Made by a program: the position numbers and the translations under genes. A DNA stretch of 60,054 nt, from positions 7,969-68,022 of the forward strand of contig MFDD01000015.1 of the NCBI GenBank assembly GCA_001776775.1. Direction: 5' to 3'. Within the stretch, counting starts at the first letter, position 1. The number at the start of each line of letters is the position of its first letter. A model generated the notes under the pieces. The model was not told the origin of the DNA. It did not search any database and was given only the letters and a program-made list of their open reading frames with translations. Of the stretch, positions 11,407 through 40,162 are shown piece by piece. The stretch is from Candidatus Daviesbacteria bacterium RIFCSPHIGHO2_02_FULL_43_12. Lineage in GTDB: Bacteria > Patescibacteriota > Microgenomatia > Daviesbacterales > UBA10151.

Positions 11407-13551
11407 CTAATCTGGCATTACGCCTGATTGACCTGCTAATTTTCCCTTATAGTATGGGTATTTGTCAAGCTCAGGACTGGCTTTGAGCATTTCTTTGGCC
11501 ACACTCTTGGTTTTTTCTATCAGGGGTACATCTGATAATGAGGCTATTTTTAGATCCCACCGACCGGCTTGTTTAGTTCCAAAAAGCTGCCCTGAACCTC
11601 TGATTTTTAGATCAATTTCGGATAATTTCAGCCCGTCTGAGGAGTTTTCTAAATTTTTGAGTCTTTGGATCACAAAAGGGTCTTCTTGCTCGGTAAATAA
11701 TAAACAAAAAGATTCTTTCCCCCCTCTTCCAATCCGCCCCCTTAATTGATGAAGCTGGGCCAGACCAAACCGCTCAGCTCCCTCGATAACCATGATTGTA
11801 GCATTGGGCACATCCACCCCTACTTCTACAACCGATGTAGAGACCAATAAATCTATTTTACCTGCTTTAAATCTAGTGATGACCTCCTCTTTTTCCTTGG
11901 GCCTAAGCTTACCGTGCAAAAGTCCAAGCCGAAACTGGGGAAATATTTGGGCTTGAAGCTTCTCAAACTCCGCTTTGGCAGCTTTGGCGCTAACCAGAGT
12001 TTCTGATTCCTCGATAAGAGGAGTTACCAGATAGACCTGATCCCCTCCAGCGATTTTTTTAGTCATAAAAGCATACGCGTCAAGTCGTTTATGAGAAGGT
12101 ACATAATGAGTCTTAATAGGCTTTCGCCCTTTGGGTAGCTCCCCTATGACTGAGACATCTAAGTCGCCGTAGATAGTTAATGCCACAGTCCGCGGAATTG
12201 GAGTGGCGGTCATCGTGAGGAAATGAGGGGCTAGATTTTTAAGATTATTATTTTGTTGACGAAGGATGGTGCGCTGTTTGACCCCGAAACGCTGCTGTTC
12301 ATCGATGACCACCAAACCAACATTTTCTTTCAGTAGTTTTTCGGATAATAAAGCATGAGTTCCGACAATAACATTGGGATAGCTATTAGCTATTAGCTCG
12401 CCTCGCTTCGCGGTCGAAGCGGGCTGGGGGTCTCTAGCTTCAGAATCATTTGGACTGTCTTCTTGTTTGACTAATAGCTCCTGGCTAATAACTCCCGACT
12501 TCTGTTTATTGAATTTACTGCTCCCTGTATACAGCCCAACACTCATTCCGAGAGGTTCAAGCAACTTCTTTAAGCTAGAATAATGCTGCATGGCTAGTAT
12601 CTCGGTTGGAGCCATCAGCAGACTTCTTAAGTGATTTCTAAAAGAGAGATAAATAGCAATGGCCGCAACAACTGTTTTTCCTGATCCGACTTCGCCCTGA
12701 ATCAAGCGGTTCATCGCTTGAGGTTTTTGCAGATCTTCAATAATTTCCGCCAAAACTGTTTTCTGTCCGTGGGTTAGCTCAAAAGGCAGGGATGATGTAA
12801 AGGTAGTGAGATCTGACTCATTGATCTTAAAACCCTTGGCGCTTTGTTTTTGCTTCCAGTCAGCACGCCTTTTTTGGGTAGAGAGTTGAATTTCCAGTAG
12901 TTCATCAAAACCCAGACGCGTCTTGGCCAGGTTAATTTCGGTAAATGACCTGGGAAAATGAATAGTCTGCAACGCTTTGCCAAGAGAAAACATCGCTTCT
13001 TTATACTCCAGAGGCAGTGGATCGACCAGAGATCCGAGTACCAGCGGTAGTAATGAATTAATTTTATCTCTCAGCCACTTTGAGTTAACCCCAAATGTTT
13101 CAGGATACACTGGCACCAGCCGACCGGTATGGAGTCCGATGGAGTTTTCGATGATTTTTTCCCAAGTAGGAGAAACCATAGTCAGTTTATTTTGCCGGCG
13201 GTCAACCTTACCGGATACATGTAAAGTATCCCCGGAGAGGATATTTTTAATCAGCCATGCCTGATTAAACCAGACTAACTCAACTGAACCGGATCCATCA
13301 TTTAAAATTGCTCGGGTTAAAGTTTTACCATATCGGCTACTAGAATTTTGGATATTCCAGACCTGACCCTTGATCGTCACCTCTTGATCAATCGGTGCTT
13401 CGGAGATTCTAATGATCTTTGAGTAATCGTCATAGCGAAAGGGAAAGTGGTAGATTAAATCCAAAGCAGTCATGAGTCCTAACTTTTCGAGCCTTTTAGC
13501 AAAACTTGGACCGACCCCTTTTAACCTTGAAAGCGGTATTTGCAAATCCAT
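11407..13551 (-). CDS. recG: ATP-dependent DNA helicase RecG (carries an in-frame repeat insertion)
   Basis: Wedge/OB N-terminus, Walker A GEVGSGKT, DEQQRFG (DEQH-type box), TATPIPRT, ...QLRGRIGRG. Confidence 0.93.
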   Translation of the reverse strand: MDLQIPLSRLKGVGPSFAKRLEKLGLMTALDLIYHFPFRYDDYSKIIRISEAPIDQEVTIKGQVWNIQNSSSRYGKTLTRAILNDGSGSVELVWFNQAWLIKNILSGDTLHVSGKVDRRQNKLTMVSPTWEKIIENSIGLHTGRLVPVYPETFGVNSKWLRDKINSLLPLVLGSLVDPLPLEYKEAMFSLGKALQTIHFPRSFTEINLAKTRLGFDELLEIQLSTQKRRADWKQKQSAKGFKINESDLTTFTSSLPFELTHGQKTVLAEIIEDLQKPQAMNRLIQGEVGSGKTVVAAIAIYLSFRNHLRSLLMAPTEILAMQHYSSLKKLLEPLGMSVGLYTGSSKFNKQKSGVISQELLVKQEDSPNDSEARDPQPASTAKRGELIANSYPNVIVGTHALLSEKLLKENVGLVVIDEQQRFGVKQRTILRQQNNNLKNLAPHFLTMTATPIPRTVALTIYGDLDVSVIGELPKGRKPIKTHYVPSHKRLDAYAFMTKKIAGGDQVYLVTPLIEESETLVSAKAAKAEFEKLQAQIFPQFRLGLLHGKLRPKEKEEVITRFKAGKIDLLVSTSVVEVGVDVPNATIMVIEGAERFGLAQLHQLRGRIGRGGKESFCLLFTEQEDPFVIQRLKNLENSSDGLKLSEIDLKIRGSGQLFGTKQAGRWDLKIASLSDVPLIEKTKSVAKEMLKASPELDKYPYYKGKLAGQSGVMPD
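12381..12493. repeat. In-frame palindromic insertion element, copy 1 (inside recG)
   Basis: Ends are AGCTATT AGCTATT AGCT ... CTAATAGCT CCTGGCTAATA. GC-rich hairpin at 12402-12423. The 32-nt core 12395-12426 is identical to 21898-21929. Confidence 0.8.
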
Positions 13552-13590
13552 TTACCGAGATTATACACTTAAAGGGAGGTTAAAATTTAA

Positions 13591-13689
13591 AAGTTCAAAG
13601 TCAAAAGTAAATGTTGAAGTTGAAAAGTAAGGACCCTTTTGACTTTTGAATTGTATTTTTGACTTTTGAGTTTCGACTTTTAGCTTGCC
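13591..13689. repeat. Heptamer-word palindrome in the recG / 13690 divergent spacer
   Basis: AGTTCAA AGTCAAA AGTAAAT GTTGAAG TTGAAAA... faces ...TTTTGAC TTTTGAA ... TTTGACT TTTGAGT TTCGACT. Centre is near 13632. Confidence 0.65.
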
Positions 13690-21117: not shown

Positions 21118-21714
21118 ATGAAAATTATTCGCAGGATCGGAGCACTTTATTTTTTACTAATCGGCAGCTTTGAGGTCTATGCCCAGTTTCGGAATACTAT
21201 TTTTACCTCTTTAGGGAATGAATTAATATCTCAGGTGATCTATTTAAGTTTAGGTTTGGTTCTAGTTTATACAGCCTTTTGCTTATGGAAAAACCGGCGA
21301 AATTTTTTACCTTTTGTGTTTGGGCTCCTCTGTTTGGTCGGAACATACTCTCTCTTTAGTGTTTATATTTTAACCTATAACACGTCCGAGCTTTTAACGA
21401 CACAGCTCCAGCAGGTTATTTACTACCTGACGCCGATTTTACTGCTTTTTGGGATCTTAAGAAATCAGGCTAACGAGCATGACGGCCCATTGGTCAGAAA
21501 GTTTGTCAATATTTCTCTAGTGAACGGGCGGGCTCTGGTCTATCTGATCTATCTTTCCGGGGTGATCCTGATTCTAACTGGGATAATCACTGTGGAAGTT
21601 TTTCATGCTCCTCTGGCCGTTACCAATAAGACGCTAAATTCAATTTTACTCTTAGGGATAGGATTTTTGATATATCTCTACTTAAATTTTCACCGGAAAA
21701 GAAGTCAGTCTTGA
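21118..21714 (+). CDS. Unknown multi-TM membrane protein inserted after atpA
   Basis: About 6 hydrophobic segments. No motif recognised. Confidence 0.5.
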   Translation: MKIIRRIGALYFLLIGSFEVYAQFRNTIFTSLGNELISQVIYLSLGLVLVYTAFCLWKNRRNFLPFVFGLLCLVGTYSLFSVYILTYNTSELLTTQLQQVIYYLTPILLLFGILRNQANEHDGPLVRKFVNISLVNGRALVYLIYLSGVILILTGIITVEVFHAPLAVTNKTLNSILLLGIGFLIYLYLNFHRKRSQS

Positions 21715-22997
21715 GGTAGATATTTTTTGACCACTTTGACATCGCTCCAGGGAACTTCTCCCTGTCCTAAGTTCATGGACTGCTCATGTCCTTTACCGGT
21801 AATAACGATAAAGTCTCCCCGCTCGGCCATGGAGAGAGCAAATTTAATCGCTTCTTCCCTGTCGGGAATTTCAAACAATAGCTTGCCTTTAGCTATCAGC
21901 TCGCCTCGCTTCGCGGTCGAAGCGGGCTGATGGCTGTTAGCTTTTATAATATTTTTTTGCTGGCTAATAGCTAATAGCTCCTGACTGTTGACTAATTCTT
22001 TGAATTCTTTAGTCACCCCTGACCTTATATCCTTGTTGATCTTACTAACACTCTCATGGCGAGGATCCTCGGCAGTTAAAATAATAATATCGGAGTATTT
22101 AGAAGAAGCCTTACCCATAAAGGGACGTTTAGAGGAGTCCCGCTCACCCGCTGAACCGAAGACATGGATTAAACGAGCTTTAGTCTTTCTTTTAAGATCG
22201 GATAATATCTGCAAAAAAGCCTGGGGAGTATGGGCAAAATCCACCATGACGGAAAAATTCTTATTATAAAGCATCTCTTGTCTACCAATCGGGGCGCTAA
22301 AGCTTAAAAGAGCCCTTCTGATGTCCTGATCCGCTATTTTTAATCTCTTGGCCACCGCGATTGCTGCCAGTGAATTAGCGCGATTAAAGTGACCTAAAAG
22401 CCTAGTGTTAAAGGGGTACTTGCGAGGAGTAAAACTGGCTTTTTGGTTAGTTAGTGAATATGTATAAACAATCTTTTTTTGCAGTGACCTTTTAACTAAT
22501 CCAAAGGACTTATCGTCCATATTCAGGACTGCGACCTTGGCTTTTTTAAGCAGTTTTAATTTGGCCGCCAGATACTTGTTGTACGTTTTATGGTAATCCA
22601 GATGTTCATGGGTGATATTGGTCAGTACGGCGATATCAAAAGAAATCCCGGCAACTCTATTTTGATCAAGAGCATGAGACGTTGTTTCTAAAACGAGATA
22701 CTGCATTCCAGCTTTTTTGGCTCGACTGATATATTTATTCAAAGCCATGCTACTAGGTGTAGTAACATGAAAGCCAGTGTCAATAGCCTTGTCTCCAAGA
22801 TAGGCGCCGATGGTGGTAATCATGGCGACTTTAAGGCCTGCCTCATTGAGGATGTGATAGATTAAACTGGATGTAGTAGTTTTGCCATCAGTTCCGGTCA
22901 CTCCAATCACGGTCATTTGGCGGGAGGGAAAACCATAGCGAGTATTAGCGATAAGCGCTCTTCCCAGATGATAAGTGTTTTTTAATGTACGTAACAT
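21705..22997 (-). CDS. murE: UDP-MurNAc-tripeptide synthetase MurE (carries an in-frame repeat insertion)
   Basis: VIGVTGTDGKTTT P-loop, DFAHTP, FGSAGERD..KRP.MG, TAEDPR, ITGKGHE. The start is set at MLRTLKN...; the ORF-track start at 23162 would overlap murD by 100 nt. Confidence 0.85.
   Translation of the reverse strand: MLRTLKNTYHLGRALIANTRYGFPSRQMTVIGVTGTDGKTTTSSLIYHILNEAGLKVAMITTIGAYLGDKAIDTGFHVTTPSSMALNKYISRAKKAGMQYLVLETTSHALDQNRVAGISFDIAVLTNITHEHLDYHKTYNKYLAAKLKLLKKAKVAVLNMDDKSFGLVKRSLQKKIVYTYSLTNQKASFTPRKYPFNTRLLGHFNRANSLAAIAVAKRLKIADQDIRRALLSFSAPIGRQEMLYNKNFSVMVDFAHTPQAFLQILSDLKRKTKARLIHVFGSAGERDSSKRPFMGKASSKYSDIIILTAEDPRHESVSKINKDIRSGVTKEFKELVNSQELLAISQQKNIIKANSHQPASTAKRGELIAKGKLLFEIPDREEAIKFALSMAERGDFIVITGKGHEQSMNLGQGEVPWSDVKVVKKYLPQD
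21891..21986. repeat. In-frame palindromic insertion element, copy 2 (inside murE)
   Basis: AGCTATCAGCT...core 21898-21929 is identical to recG 12395-12426...TGGCTAA TAGCTAA TAGCTCC TGAC. Encodes SQELLAISQQKNIIKANSHQPASTAKRGELIA. Confidence 0.8.
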
Positions 22998-23061
22998 ATT
23001 ACTCTGTGGATTCACGATACATGATACAAGATTCATGAATCCTGTATCTTCAATCTTGAAT

Positions 23062-24441
23062 CTAGTTAAGCTTTCGGACTCTTTCTTTGAACTGGTCTCC
23101 CCTGTCTTTGTAGTTTTTAAACATATCAAAACTAGCACACGCCGGAGAAAGGATGACCACATCCCCAGGCTCGGCTATCTCGGCAGCTTTACTAACGATC
23201 TCCTCCATATTCTTACAACCTTCAATAATCCTAATTCTTAACCCTGCATTCTGAATTCTTAATTTGATCTGTGGCCATTCGATCCCAATCCCGATAATGG
23301 CTTTGATTGTTGAATCGTGACTAATCAGTTCTCCTAACTCACTAAAATCACTCTTTTTAGGAGATCCACCGAGAATTAAAATCTTGGGAGCCTTAAAGGC
23401 TTTGATAGCAGCGATAGATGGTGAGGGAGCCGTGGCAAATGAATCGTCGTAATATTTAACTCCCTTTAAATTCCGGACTAGCTCTAATCGATGTGGTAAG
23501 CCTTTAAAGTTTTTAACCGCCTCCCGAATTGCTTCGGTAGAGATTCCGATAATTTTAGCTGCCATAACCGCTGCGCAGACATTTTCCCAGTTATGTTTAC
23601 CGGGGATAAAGACCTCCGAGACATCGATTATATCTTCTCCCTCGCAGATGATTTTTTGGTTAGAAACATAACATCCCCTGGTCACTTCTCTTGAGCTGCT
23701 TATTTCGAATAGCTTGGCCTTGGACCCGGCAATCACTTGGCTGGTGTTAGCATAATCCGTATTGGCTATCAGATAATCCTGGTCTGTTTGCCAGGTAGTT
23801 ATCGCTCGTTTCGCCTCGGTGTAGCTATCAATTGATTTATGAACCTCCAGATGGTCTTCGGTGACCATTAAAACTACGGCGATATGGGGGCTTAGTTTCA
23901 AGTCCTGCAGCTGGAAACTAGACAGCTCTAACACCACCAGTGATGCAGGATTAAGCTTGTCCAAAAAACTTAAAGGCGAGTTACCGATATTGCCCCCCAA
24001 AAAAACATCGTCTTCTTCCATTTTGATAATCTCATAAATTAAAGTGCTGGTCGTGCCCTTACCCTTGGTTCCTGTTACTCCGATAATCGGACATGGACAA
24101 AGGTCAAAGAAGATTTGGGTAGTAGAGGTGATCTTAATCCCCAGCTGTTTTGCTTGTTTAATAGGTTGGCTATCTATGGGTACTCCTGGAGAGCGGACAA
24201 GTAATTCAAAAGATGAATCAATCTTTTGAGACTCAAATTCAAACACCACCCCCCTTTTCTCCAACCTTTTGATGGTTTGAGACTCAAAACCTTGACGAGG
24301 TTTAAGATCGAAGACGACAATTTTGGAAGCCTTCTGCAGAAGTGAAAATTCTATAGCCGACTCACCTTCTATGCCAAACCCAAGCACGCCCACTTTTTTA
24401 TCTTTGAAACTATCAAGTTCCATAAGGCTATTATACGTCAT
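23062..24441 (-). CDS. murD: UDP-MurNAc-L-Ala--D-Glu ligase MurD
   Basis: N-terminal Rossmann GVLGFGIEG, IIGVTGTKGKGTT P-loop, ...GLPHRLE..., typical MurD length. Confidence 0.9.
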   Translation of the reverse strand: MTYNSLMELDSFKDKKVGVLGFGIEGESAIEFSLLQKASKIVVFDLKPRQGFESQTIKRLEKRGVVFEFESQKIDSSFELLVRSPGVPIDSQPIKQAKQLGIKITSTTQIFFDLCPCPIIGVTGTKGKGTTSTLIYEIIKMEEDDVFLGGNIGNSPLSFLDKLNPASLVVLELSSFQLQDLKLSPHIAVVLMVTEDHLEVHKSIDSYTEAKRAITTWQTDQDYLIANTDYANTSQVIAGSKAKLFEISSSREVTRGCYVSNQKIICEGEDIIDVSEVFIPGKHNWENVCAAVMAAKIIGISTEAIREAVKNFKGLPHRLELVRNLKGVKYYDDSFATAPSPSIAAIKAFKAPKILILGGSPKKSDFSELGELISHDSTIKAIIGIGIEWPQIKLRIQNAGLRIRIIEGCKNMEEIVSKAAEIAEPGDVVILSPACASFDMFKNYKDRGDQFKERVRKLN

Positions 24442-37348: not shown

Positions 37349-39025
37349 CTCTAGCTCTAACTCAATGATCGCGATTCTTTTGTCGCTGCCAAATTTATTG
37401 ATTACTCTTGGGTGAACTTCAGCCAAGATGCCACTTGAAAACTTTCCTGACTGAATCCGCTGCTGTCTAGCAGGATGGAAGTAGTCTTGTTTTTCCCTGC
37501 TTTCTACCTTAAAGCCGATATAGAGCATCTCGAGTGCTTTTTTAATTAGCTGGTAGAGTTCTTCTGTGGGATTATCTGTATCATTAGAAAGAGCAATACT
37601 TAAAAAGTAGCTCTCTTTGGGTAACTCCCCTGGCTGCAAGTTAAAGACTTTACCTATTTCAAATATAGCTACATCTTTGAAATGTTTCAGGTTAAAGCTG
37701 ACGACCTCTAAGAGATTTGGCCATAAAGCGTTACGCAGATATGCTGTCTCCGCAGATATGGGATTGAGAATTTTGACTAATTGCCGCTGATCTGTCCCCA
37801 AACTACCTAAAACCTGAGTAGAGAAGAACGAATAGGTTTGAACCTCTTTTAATCCAACTGTCGCAAGAGATTTTTTTAGTTGATGGATAAATTCAAATTT
37901 AGATTGATCTATTTTGGACGGGGGGCTACCTGGCAATGGTGACTTTGGGATTTTTTCATATCCGTAAAGCCTGGCTATTTCTTCAATAATATCTTCTTCC
38001 TGCTGGCAGTCTAGCCTAAAATATGGAGGACTAACTTGCCAGGTATTTTCATCCACTGTTTTGACAGTAAACTGCAACCTGCCAAGAATTGATTCGATCT
38101 CTTTTTTGCTTAATACTGTGCCGATCAAATTATTTATCTTTGAATAATGAAGAATCAAGTTAATCGGGACTGTCTGAAAGTCTCCCTTGAGGGATAGGGC
38201 GGTTACTTTTCCTCCAATGGCCTGATACATTTTAATAGCCGCACTATATGCCTGCAGCAAGCCTTGCATCGTTAATCCATGCTGGAATCTACGGCTGGCT
38301 TCAGAATGTAAATTCAATCGAGAAGCAGTCCTACGCACATGTTGTGGGTTAAACATTGAGGCGGAAAGCAGGATAGTGGTAGTTGACGGCTTGATCTCTG
38401 TGTCCTTACCACCCATAATTCCAGCGACATCCAAAGCCTTTTCGTCATCGGATAAAACAATATCTGCATCAGTCAATACTCTCCTTTTATCATCCAGAGT
38501 GGTGAGAACCTCTCCTTTTCGGGCCAGCCTAACATTAATAGTATGGTCTTTGACTGCCTGGGCATCAAAAGCATGTAAAGGTTGGCCATATTCCAGCATG
38601 ATCAGATTGGTAATATCCACAAGGTTATTAATTGATCTAATCCCGGAATCGTGTAATTTTTTAACCCAATTAGCGGGAGAAGCCTGCACTGTCAAGCCTT
38701 CTATTCGGGTAACGCACTGAACAGGAGAGAGTTGTAAATCTTCGATACCGATCGGTGTAGTCTCAAACTTGTTTTTGCTCCAAATAAAGTCCTCCTGGCT
38801 TGACCCTTGACCTTTGACCCTTGATACAGTGATCGCCGCTATCTCCTGAGCTACTCCTCTAAGGGAAAGAAGATCAGCCCGGTTGTATCCTTTCATATCC
38901 AGCTCAAAAAAGTCTTTGGTGACTTCCTTGATGCCAATTGTCCGCTTTGGAAGCAGGTCCATGACCTCGTCCACCGGCCTGTCCAGGTCTATTAATTCTT
39001 TTAGCCAATCTTTAGATACTTTCAT
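37340..39025 (-). CDS. pheT: Phenylalanyl-tRNA synthetase beta subunit, reduced (561 aa)
   Basis: MKVSKDWLKELIDL N-terminus, B3/4 and B5 blocks (...GIMGG...), catalytic-like domain. Follows pheS. Confidence 0.9.
   Translation of the reverse strand: MKVSKDWLKELIDLDRPVDEVMDLLPKRTIGIKEVTKDFFELDMKGYNRADLLSLRGVAQEIAAITVSRVKGQGSSQEDFIWSKNKFETTPIGIEDLQLSPVQCVTRIEGLTVQASPANWVKKLHDSGIRSINNLVDITNLIMLEYGQPLHAFDAQAVKDHTINVRLARKGEVLTTLDDKRRVLTDADIVLSDDEKALDVAGIMGGKDTEIKPSTTTILLSASMFNPQHVRRTASRLNLHSEASRRFQHGLTMQGLLQAYSAAIKMYQAIGGKVTALSLKGDFQTVPINLILHYSKINNLIGTVLSKKEIESILGRLQFTVKTVDENTWQVSPPYFRLDCQQEEDIIEEIARLYGYEKIPKSPLPGSPPSKIDQSKFEFIHQLKKSLATVGLKEVQTYSFFSTQVLGSLGTDQRQLVKILNPISAETAYLRNALWPNLLEVVSFNLKHFKDVAIFEIGKVFNLQPGELPKESYFLSIALSNDTDNPTEELYQLIKKALEMLYIGFKVESREKQDYFHPARQQRIQSGKFSSGILAEVHPRVINKFGSDKRIAIIELELELK
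38799..38826. repeat. 4 x 7-nt tandem repeat inside pheT
   Basis: CTTGACC CTTGACC TTTGACC CTTGATA on the + strand. Encodes ...SRVKGQGSS... on the minus strand. Confidence 0.75.
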
Positions 39026-39110: not shown

Positions 39111-40162
39111 AAGAGCCTCAGGTCGCCATTTCTCAGCTGGCGCATATCCGAGATTCCCTGTTTTAGCATCGTCATTCTCTCTGGAGAGCATCCCCAGGCG
39201 ATCCCAGAATACTCATTAGGATTAATCCCCCCCGCTCGCAAGACGTTGGGATGAATCATCCCCGCCCCACCCAGCTCTAACCACCCCACCCCTCCACAGA
39301 TATTGCACCCCTTACCACTACAAAAAATACACAGTCCATCAACGCCCGCTCCTGGTTCAACAAAGGGGTAATATTTAGGACGAAGCCTGGCCTTGATCTC
39401 GGGTCCAAAAACGGCCTTTAGGAAATATTCTGACAAGTAGAGCAGATTGGCCAGGCTTAAGCCTTTATCAATATATACCAGTTCAAATTGGTCAAAGGTA
39501 TGCTCATGGCGGGCATCGGTACTTTCATTGCGAAAACATCTTCCGATATTCATAAACCGTACCGGAGCCGGATATTCTGTCATAATCCGGATTTGAGAGT
39601 TAGAAGTGTGTGTTCTCATCAGAATTCGACCAGGTTCAATCCCAAAGTTGGTTGAATCGATGTAAAAGGTATCCTGTAAGTCTCTAGCCGGATGGTTTTC
39701 GGGAATATTAAGAACCTGGAAGTTGTTAATATCGGTATCGATCTGAGGTGCGTCATATTGCTGGAAGCCAAGTTTAGAAAAAACCTGCACAATATGGTTT
39801 TCAAATTCGGTTAAAGGATTCAAGGCGCCTTGGCGTTTTTTAATTTCAACTGGACTGCTTAGGTCTAGCGACTCTCTTTCTAACAGCGAGTAACCTGTCT
39901 CGCGAATTGTCAGTCGCTTATTGCTTATCGCTTTTTCTAGCTCGAACTTTACGCCATTAAACAGCGGACTAACAAGTTGAAGCTGGTCTTTGGAGAGTTT
40001 AGAAAATTCCTTAGGAAGTTTGGTAACAGCTCCTTTTTTGCCAAATAGGGCCAGAAAATGCTCGTCTAGCTCTTTGAGAGAGCTGGCTTGTTTAATCTTT
40101 TTTAAATATGTATTTTTAATATCCGCTATCTTGTCCTGCATATTATTGCTTGATTCTAGCAT
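39080..40162 (-). CDS. pheS: Phenylalanyl-tRNA synthetase alpha subunit (start possibly Met at 40141)
   Basis: Class II motifs ...HPARD.QDTFY..., ...RTHTS..Q.R., ...GRCFRNE..D..H...F.Q.E..., ...GAGMIHP.VL... Confidence 0.95.
   Translation of the reverse strand: MLESSNNMQDKIADIKNTYLKKIKQASSLKELDEHFLALFGKKGAVTKLPKEFSKLSKDQLQLVSPLFNGVKFELEKAISNKRLTIRETGYSLLERESLDLSSPVEIKKRQGALNPLTEFENHIVQVFSKLGFQQYDAPQIDTDINNFQVLNIPENHPARDLQDTFYIDSTNFGIEPGRILMRTHTSNSQIRIMTEYPAPVRFMNIGRCFRNESTDARHEHTFDQFELVYIDKGLSLANLLYLSEYFLKAVFGPEIKARLRPKYYPFVEPGAGVDGLCIFCSGKGCNICGGVGWLELGGAGMIHPNVLRAGGINPNEYSGIAWGCSPERMTMLKQGISDMRQLRNGDLRLFESLGSSVKV

Follow-up and report, generated by a model that had tools for sequence, protein, structure and literature searches.

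How do the genes for a DNA helicase and a cell-wall ligase of one groundwater bacterium come to carry, in the same reading frame, an identical stretch of palindromic DNA? The question is raised by a 60,054-nt stretch of the genome of Candidatus Daviesbacteria bacterium RIFCSPHIGHO2_02_FULL_43_12 (contig MFDD01000015.1), analysed here at full length and called the window, in which recG and a murE-type gene share a 32-nt core. The answer that appears probable is that the feature is a composite, non-autonomous repeat inserted in frame and predicted to be read through by the ribosome, and that the GC-rich module nested in it comes from a dispersed family of mini-elements resembling repetitive extragenic palindromes (REPs) and small dispersed repeats (SDRs).

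A core shared by recG and murE

The two host genes lie on the same strand of the window:

recG, 11407-13551, minus strand: open reading frame (ORF) of 714 amino acids with the Pfam domains RecG_wedge, DEAD, Helicase_C and RecG_dom3_C.
murE-type Mur ligase, 21705-22997, minus strand: 430 amino acids in the public call; the open frame extends to 23162 (485 amino acids).

The closest named homologues of the RecG protein are those of Candidatus Daviesbacteria, in the Microgenomates lineage of the Candidate Phyla Radiation (CPR), and the MurE type of the ligase was judged from its best PDB matches. Within the open frame 21705-23162 Pfam detects the middle and C-terminal Mur ligase domains only, with no N-terminal domain.

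An earlier note, made from the sequence alone, had described inverted heptamers and a GC-rich hairpin at 12381-12493 of recG, together with a 32-nt core repeated in murE and read there in the same frame. Hairpin and arms are present as described. The window contains the 32-mer, AGCTCGCCTCGCTTCGCGGTCGAAGCGGGCTG, two times and no more (12395-12426 and 21898-21929), and dinucleotide-preserving shuffles gave no match to it, so that the identity is beyond chance; both copies are translated in one frame, giving QPASTAKRGELIA in RecG and in the MurE-type ligase. With a repeat finder the similar region grows to 55 nt (87% identity; 12386-12440 against 21889-21943), and a separate second block of 23 nt appears at 83% identity (12471-12493 against 21971-21993).

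The simplest explanation would be a local duplication or gene conversion between recG and murE without wider meaning, or else an assembly artefact. The window holds only two copies, 9.5 kb apart and in the same orientation, as a local event would have it. The chance of this explanation nevertheless appears negligible: the core is not confined to the two genes, with more than 160 further exact copies in unrelated contexts and sequencing projects, and 21 independently assembled contigs (NCBI, ENA and JGI assemblies) encode this very RecG protein together with its insert, which is therefore not an assembly artefact.

Both segments are insertions

Comparison with orthologues delimits two inserted segments:

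recG insertion, 12388-12498, minus strand: 111 nt, 37 amino acids, residues S352-A388, SGVISQELLVKQEDSPNDSEARDPQPASTAKRGELIA; boundaries accurate to within a few nucleotides.
murE insertion, 21891-21998, minus strand: about 108 nt, about 36 amino acids, in frame, ELVNSQELLAISQQKNIIKANSHQPASTAKRGELIA.

Both are missing from orthologues and from solved structures. The shortest of 119 aligned Daviesbacteria-type RecG orthologues have nothing between YTGSKK and xVIVGTHAL, and the alignment to Thermotoga maritima RecG (1gm5) breaks exactly there, query residues 354-385 standing against a single chain position. No homologous segment was found at this position in RecG orthologues, and the proposal that the recG segment is an insertion is borne out. 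The accompanying idea that RecG proteins have only a short linker here holds for the minimal orthologues and fails for about half of the 119 Daviesbacteria sequences, which carry other, unrelated inserts of 10-45 residues at the same place; the RecG linker is an insertion hot spot. In the case of MurE, the stretch of query residues 333-376 finds no match in the alignment to 4bub, where five chain residues (423-428) stand opposite it, and four other MurE proteins lack the approximately 36 residues encoded at 21891-21998.

An AlphaFold2 model of RecG built with 55 homologues assigns residues 348-389 a predicted local distance difference test (pLDDT) score of 31-37 and no secondary structure, as against mostly 70-90 in the remaining helicase. 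The model thus supports the placing of the insert in a surface loop, which it predicts to be disordered. Tryptic peptides predicted from the inserts are GELIANSYPNVIVGTHALLSEK and DPQPASTAK.

The recurring unit is a 27-nt module

The earlier note had taken the recurring unit to be the 113-nt element with its 32-nt core. Recurrence beyond the two genes stands; the unit itself is a shorter one, a module of 27 nt:

module copy 1, 12397-12423, minus strand: reads CCCGCTTCGACCGCGAAGCGAGGCGAG and encodes PASTAKRGE; covariance-model score 49.6 bits.
module copy 2, 21900-21926, minus strand: identical to copy 1; found by the 32-mer match and the covariance model.

The identity in the window reaches 32 nt through an added CAG and CT, which belong to the local heptamer context. 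The module pairs in a 9-bp stem, from which one A bulges, around a 4-nt loop, and ends in a CGAG tail; its hairpin, CTCGCTTCG-CGGT-CGAAGCGGG, has a predicted folding energy of -15.7 kcal/mol (z = -4.3). It is nine codons long with a stop codon in none of the six frames, a property of 51% of same-composition shuffles and of only 5% of the 27-mers of the window.

The 22-nt hairpin was found on at least 118 metagenome contigs from many environments and in 48 stretches of species-representative genomes, against a chance expectation of about 0.07 in 596 Gb, estimated for uniform base composition. Among the matches listed from two scans with this hairpin, on which all family counts given here rest, the loci fall into 120 independent groups and approximately 96 site families with unrelated flanks, at which the 27-mer is present in exact copies. 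Oriented alike, the matches share CCCGCTTCGACCGCGAAGCGAG followed by GCGAG, beyond which the sequences are unrelated; GCGAG lies outside the query, yet it is intact in 169 of 183 instances. A k-mer comparison found no other 14-mer common to at least six of the 120 locus groups.

The record titles of the matches name a range of CPR/Patescibacteria (Buchanan-, Komeili-, Roizman-, Gottesman-, Staskawicz-, Falkow- and Kuenenbacteria, and Microgenomates), and also Planctomycetota, Ignavibacteria, one Bacteroidetes metagenome-assembled genome (MAG), "uncultured Gammaproteobacteria" and two Nanoarchaeota MAGs. Among the Planctomycetota matches is a Sedimentisphaerales MAG that has the module three times, on contigs of 0.7-0.9 Mb. 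These names are depositors' labels, and certain "Gammaproteobacteria" contexts recur identically on CPR-like contigs; the archaeal label of two loci (L147 and L166 in the numbering used here) was not confirmed, Pfam being uninformative on the neighbouring genes. No cyanobacterium is among the labels of the 48 genome matches, and a search of viral contigs gave no exact match to the module.

Genomic contexts of the module

Long ORFs are the commonest environment: 56 of the 96 site families (58%) lie well inside one, 16 at ORF edges and 24 in no long ORF. The genic copies occupy all six frames, with PASTAKRG(E) as the commonest peptide (21 cases), and split 40 sense to 16 antisense (p = 0.0018). 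Their hosts are mostly housekeeping genes, including class I aminoacyl-tRNA synthetases, at different sites, Mur ligases, P-type ATPases, TsaD and PilB-type ATPases. In 65 of 95 sites the module is followed by C (+1); positions -7 and +8 are likewise enriched in C, which corresponds to the heptamer phase, so that modules flanked by heptamer arrays fall exactly between two units. Of the sites, 34% are flanked by direct repeats of 6 nt or more (controls, 7%) and 19% by inverted repeats of that length (controls, 6%). Several copies stand in the loops of other REP-like palindromes, as in gtcattcccgcga-module-aagcgggaatcc.

In another CPR MurE gene (locus L065) both site and frame of the module differ (12473-12499, read as PLRPRSEAS); a relative of 61 nt that shares its termini lies next to it at 12512-12572, both among CAAAAGT heptamers.

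Empty and filled sites in P-type ATPases

The closest view of single insertions is offered by CopA-like P-type ATPases, of which at least ten alleles from two diverged subfamilies carry the module at the same codon position, as ...ARVxSDG-SPRFAVEAG-(K/Q/E)E...:

filled ATPase loci: L136, L084, L086, L155, L036, L066, L078, L102, L173 and L174.

A protein search with a short peptide, which returned only short fragments lacking the insert, showed that canonical, empty ATPases read ...ARVIRDGKEIDIP... at this site. Of the 120 closest homologues of one filled allele, the insert is present in 3 only, and relatives of about 80% identity are without it. The filled allele L173 and its close relative L176, which is empty, differ by exactly 27 nt, with no target duplication. 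Among ten filled alleles, identity is 99.3% in the module as against 56-60% in the flanks; the Gly wobble base that abuts the module varies freely, and the Ser before the insert is encoded by AGT, AGC, TCG or TCT, in the place of an Arg in empty alleles (Arg-Asn/Asp-Gly). Repeated insertion at one tolerant site, recombinational spread and nucleotide-level constraint are all possible sources of this pattern.

The few variants that escaped selection by the query, namely second copies within loci and an allele found by protein search, differ from the module in the loop or the bulge alone, or else in both partners of a single base pair of the stem. A covariance-model scan over 1.1 Mb of loci added a few longer or shorter relatives of 22-61 nt, several of them inside heptamer arrays, which keep the termini CCCGCTTCG...CGAAGCGAGGCGAG and vary at the apex. 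Fixed inverted termini around a free interior would be the pattern expected of a mobile element with recognised ends.

The same constancy could be attributed to selection on the host side, the 27-mer being a protein-binding DNA site, a hairpin acting in mRNA stability or translation, or a DNA-uptake signal, rather than a selfish sequence. A module that stays constant while the flanking codons diverge, the compensatory change that preserves the stem and the sense-strand bias all accord with such a signal. It is harder to reconcile with copies in arbitrary genes, frames, orientations and intergenic sites, with a low copy number, with the many orthologues that lack the module (they are the majority) and with its frequent nesting within other selfish-looking palindromes, and a host signal is accordingly unlikely.

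Less probable still is that the hairpin is a very small intervening sequence cut out after transcription, its sequence constrained by a processing enzyme. Such removal would suit both the constancy at the nucleotide level and the tolerance in essential genes; against it stand a length of exactly nine codons, open in all frames (yet half of the shuffles are stop-free as well), the antisense orientation of 16 of the 56 genic copies, and the replacement of the preceding Arg by Ser through different codons in filled ATPases, as if the protein feels the insert. Nor does the module match an Rfam family: at gathering thresholds Rfam reports only tRNAs in the window, and at E-values up to 10 nothing at the element and one chance DnaX-like match outside it.

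The heptamer palindrome around the module

In the window the module forms part of a larger structure, whose arms are as follows:

heptamer arm in recG, about 12380-12398: (AGCTATT)x2.6, abutting the module (Tandem Repeats Finder (TRF), pattern search, outer stem of the fold).
opposite arm in recG, 12471-12493: CTAATAGCTCCTGGCTAATAACT, with CTAATAGCT at 12471-12479 and ...CTAATAA at its end (repeat family, fold).
heptamer arm in murE, 21889-21901: TTAGCTATCAGCT, abutting module copy 2 (pattern search, repeat finder).
opposite arm in murE, about 21960-21985: CTGGCTAATAGCTAATAGCTCCTGAC, with (GCTAATA)x2.4 at 21963-21979 (TRF, fold).

In folding, each insert forms one long imperfect hairpin (z = -4.1 and -5.7), in which the heptamer arms make up the outer stem and the GC-rich hairpin lies directly against one arm. 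The insert is thus a composite of a genome-specific heptamer palindrome (AGCTATT / CTAATAG) and the module nested beside one of its arms.

The palindromic layer also occurs by itself. At the hot spot in the RecG linker, two RecG genes of other Daviesbacteria (L178, 201-2300, and L179, 201-2297) have the arrays (GAGTCAA)x4 and (TCATCAA)x4 without the module, each facing an imperfect inverted copy, so that at least two of the inserts at this site are heptamer arrays at the DNA level. Arrays therefore exist independently of the module, which may be their secondary passenger, or the arrays may simply be hospitable ground.

Within the window, an intergenic palindrome adjoining recG (13579-13681) opposes about seven GTTAAAA-like heptamers to about seven CTTTTGA-like ones (-27.6 kcal/mol, z = -2.9) and shares its word architecture with the arms of the genic inserts; the earlier remark that the ends of the insert share the 7-nt word architecture of the intergenic palindromes is correct, according to TRF, the pattern search and this palindrome. 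Further heptamer arrays stand in long open frames at 23232-23264, 38799-38824 and 39914-39933, and also at 23016-23063, with the words TAATTCT, CTTGACC, TCGCTTA and GATACAT/TGAATCT, a MurD-like gene beside murE being among the hosts. In-gene heptamer repeats are therefore common in this genome.

The composite structure raises the alternative, put forward in the earlier note, that what moves is the whole palindrome of about 110 nt, comparable to a Rickettsia palindromic element (RPE) and built like a MITE (miniature inverted-repeat transposable element), with the 27-mer as its best-conserved part. The window copies do share their heptamer word, a 13-nt left arm and the 55 nt of similarity around the core, and in other multi-copy genomes the module likewise lies inside a larger, genome-specific repeat (L129/L148/L152; L146/L157; L168; about 100 nt in L156/L083). 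Elsewhere the 27-mer is found by itself, making ATPases, aminoacyl-tRNA synthetases and other hosts longer by exactly 27 nt, and between genomes the flanks are unrelated, down to the lack of a common 14-mer noted above. The composite of about 110 nt therefore explains spread within this genome and not the family, and as an account of the family it is possible, if rather doubtful. Within this genome, by comparison of the two inserts, the whole palindrome-plus-module was most likely copied as a unit between recG and murE, because the composites share both heptamer word and flanks.

Comparison with known repeats

The nearest parallel appears to be the SDRs of Nostoc and related cyanobacteria, which Elhai and colleagues (Genome Res, 2008) reportedly described together with heptameric tandem repeats (short tandemly repeated repetitive sequences, STRR). 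SDRs are said to be hairpin-forming sequences of 21-27 nt, near-identical in unrelated contexts, located in heptamer arrays and nested in other repeats, and to encode no protein. The module resembles this description in its size and hairpin, in its near-identical copies in unrelated contexts, in its heptamer arrays and nesting and in the lack of an encoded protein. It appears to differ from SDRs in sequence, and differs in phyla, in that one 27-mer is common to MAGs labelled as several phyla, and in the in-frame location of most copies in housekeeping genes.

REPs are imperfect palindromes of 20-40 nt that fall into super-families with a GTAG or a CGTC tag, the CGTC type having stems of 8-9 bp and loops of 4-5 nt; single intragenic REPs exist, many of them in replication and repair genes (Di Nocera et al. 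2013, PMC3733652). The module is likewise an imperfect palindrome, of 27 nt, with an unpaired tail, a 9-bp stem and a 4-nt loop, and its genic copies have counterparts among REPs. Unlike REPs, it is low in copy number (2 copies in 60 kb) and mostly genic, in the proportion of site families given above. Doublets of REPs forming hairpins (REPINs), together with REP-associated tyrosine transposases (RAYTs), make up systems (PMC3116915; bioRxiv 10.1101/2022.05.22.493013) that are described as mostly vertically inherited. RAYT-like genes are present in some of the CPR loci; no RAYT flanked by the module itself was seen in the 4-7 kb or so examined around each copy, and, unlike REPIN-RAYT systems, the module is identical across distant taxa.

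RPEs are palindromic repeats inserted in frame into unrelated housekeeping genes, to which they add a tolerated peptide (review PMC10969869). The precedent, invoked in the earlier note, is apt as behaviour, given that both alignments demonstrate in-frame palindromic inserts; the composite of about 110 nt falls in the RPE size range, its translation here being predicted. The likeness is claimed as one of behaviour; the family unit has 27 nt instead of about 100-150 nt, and the host belongs to the CPR and is not an alphaproteobacterial endosymbiont. With MITEs the module shares its non-autonomous character and its 9-nt terminal inverted repeats, CCCGCTTCG / CGAAGCG(A)GG, kept in longer variants with a variable interior; it is much smaller and shows no target-site duplication at L173/L176. 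No parent insertion sequence with the ends of the module was seen in the loci examined, a collection-wide search not having been made. In the open literature, a full-text search retrieved no paper containing the module sequence or its peptides, and no paper linking CPR genomes with REP, MITE or RAYT.

How the module might spread

From these properties we infer that the module is mobile; among known mobile DNA elements it would rank with the smallest. In the proposed mechanism, a nearly invariant dispersed palindrome, whose inverted termini of 9 nt each enclose a 4-nt apex and which has a tail of 4 nt, would add exactly 27 nt at each insertion, without target duplication and usually just 5' of a C. 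With nine codons and no stop in six frames, it would not break the genes it enters, and the surviving copies would be those placed where nine extra residues are harmless, whether in disordered protein loops, within heptamer arrays or other palindromes' loops, or between genes. In this genome the palindrome-plus-module would in addition have been copied as one unit. More tentatively, and judging from its architecture, the module may be handled as a single-stranded DNA hairpin that a transposase of the HUH/Y1 (RAYT-like) type moves in trans.

RAYT-like genes with the Pfam domain Y1_Tnp were detected in two loci on CPR-type contigs, at L016:5659-6378 and on the minus strand of L064 (5396-6106 on that strand), one of them with a module 153 nt away that is itself nested in a REP-like palindrome; a motif scan found no Y1_Tnp gene in the 60-kb window. 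In L064, the palindrome of the transposase gene is apparently translated three times within the transposase ORF, as TGIIPV.

A bolder version holds that the 27-mer is a minimal, actively spreading mobile DNA in which one hairpin carries all the information for propagation. It would be exchanged among CPR, Planctomycetota, Ignavibacteria and possibly DPANN archaea, kept near-invariant by shared trans-acting machinery or by copy-correction or homing, and targeted to heptamer arrays and hairpin loops. We hold this version only tentatively, as an idea with somewhat more against it than for it.

A number of observations weigh against a REP- or SDR-like mobile family. All loci were chosen by an exact 22-mer, which makes constancy within these 22 nt partly a matter of construction. 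Copy number is low, with 1-3 exact copies per representative genome, and a covariance-model scan of the 60-kb window returned the two copies and no decayed ones, the next best hit scoring 13.5 bits (E = 0.29). The module has neither the GTAG nor the CGTC tag of REPs, its ends being CCCG... and ...CGAG (CTCG... on the other strand), and its near-identity across phyla is not expected of vertically inherited REPIN-RAYT systems. Within about 4-7 kb around each copy, no gene family except housekeeping ones recurs beside the module. The RAYT-like genes occur in only 2 of the 120 locus groups, which is about chance level, and are flanked by different palindromes of their own, GGGATCATCCCGGATCGGGATGATCCC in L016 and TGACAGGTATCATACCTGTCA in L064. 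Finally, diverged ATPase alleles are filled at one and the same site, each time after Ser-Asp-Gly with different Ser codons; this recurrence may reflect nucleotide-level selection, recombinational spread or site-specific homing rather than simple random insertion.

Significance for CPR genomes

If the bolder version is true, the module would stand beside the SDR/STRR system as its counterpart outside cyanobacteria, and the mechanism of that system would become testable. The link between a hairpin module and heptamer arrays matches an unexplained phenomenon of cyanobacteria, and a shared mechanism is possible. The findings show that essential genes of streamlined CPR genomes, such as recG, murE and those for aminoacyl-tRNA synthetases and P-type ATPases, are colonised in frame by tiny palindromic repeats. 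The resulting inserts inflate and disorder protein loops, and can mislead orthology assignment and structure prediction for CPR proteins. A sequence of 27 nt that is near-unchanged across labelled phyla raises the questions of how so little DNA moves or persists and what exchanges it, and offers a sharp marker for gene flow among uncultured microbes of groundwater and sediment.

Other arrangements of the module

An intergenic repeat of about 100 nt is found in several CPR genomes, at L156 (1170-1370, 1903-1935 and 2835-2867), L083, L130, L165, L015 and L144. It has the form GTGATAYAYTTTGATAGG-[hairpin module]-TTCGAGCGAAGTACGGTTACCAGCTCC and carries either the 27-nt module or a 33-nt variant. 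Its tRNA-like look suggested a tRNA, an identity that was rejected after neither Rfam nor ARAGORN, the latter also run with introns allowed or with the 27 nt removed, found anything.

At L025:4529-4596 two modules stand in tandem, 41 nt from start to start, with CTGAAGA-type heptamers between and around them, inside an open frame of about 300 amino acids on the opposite strand.

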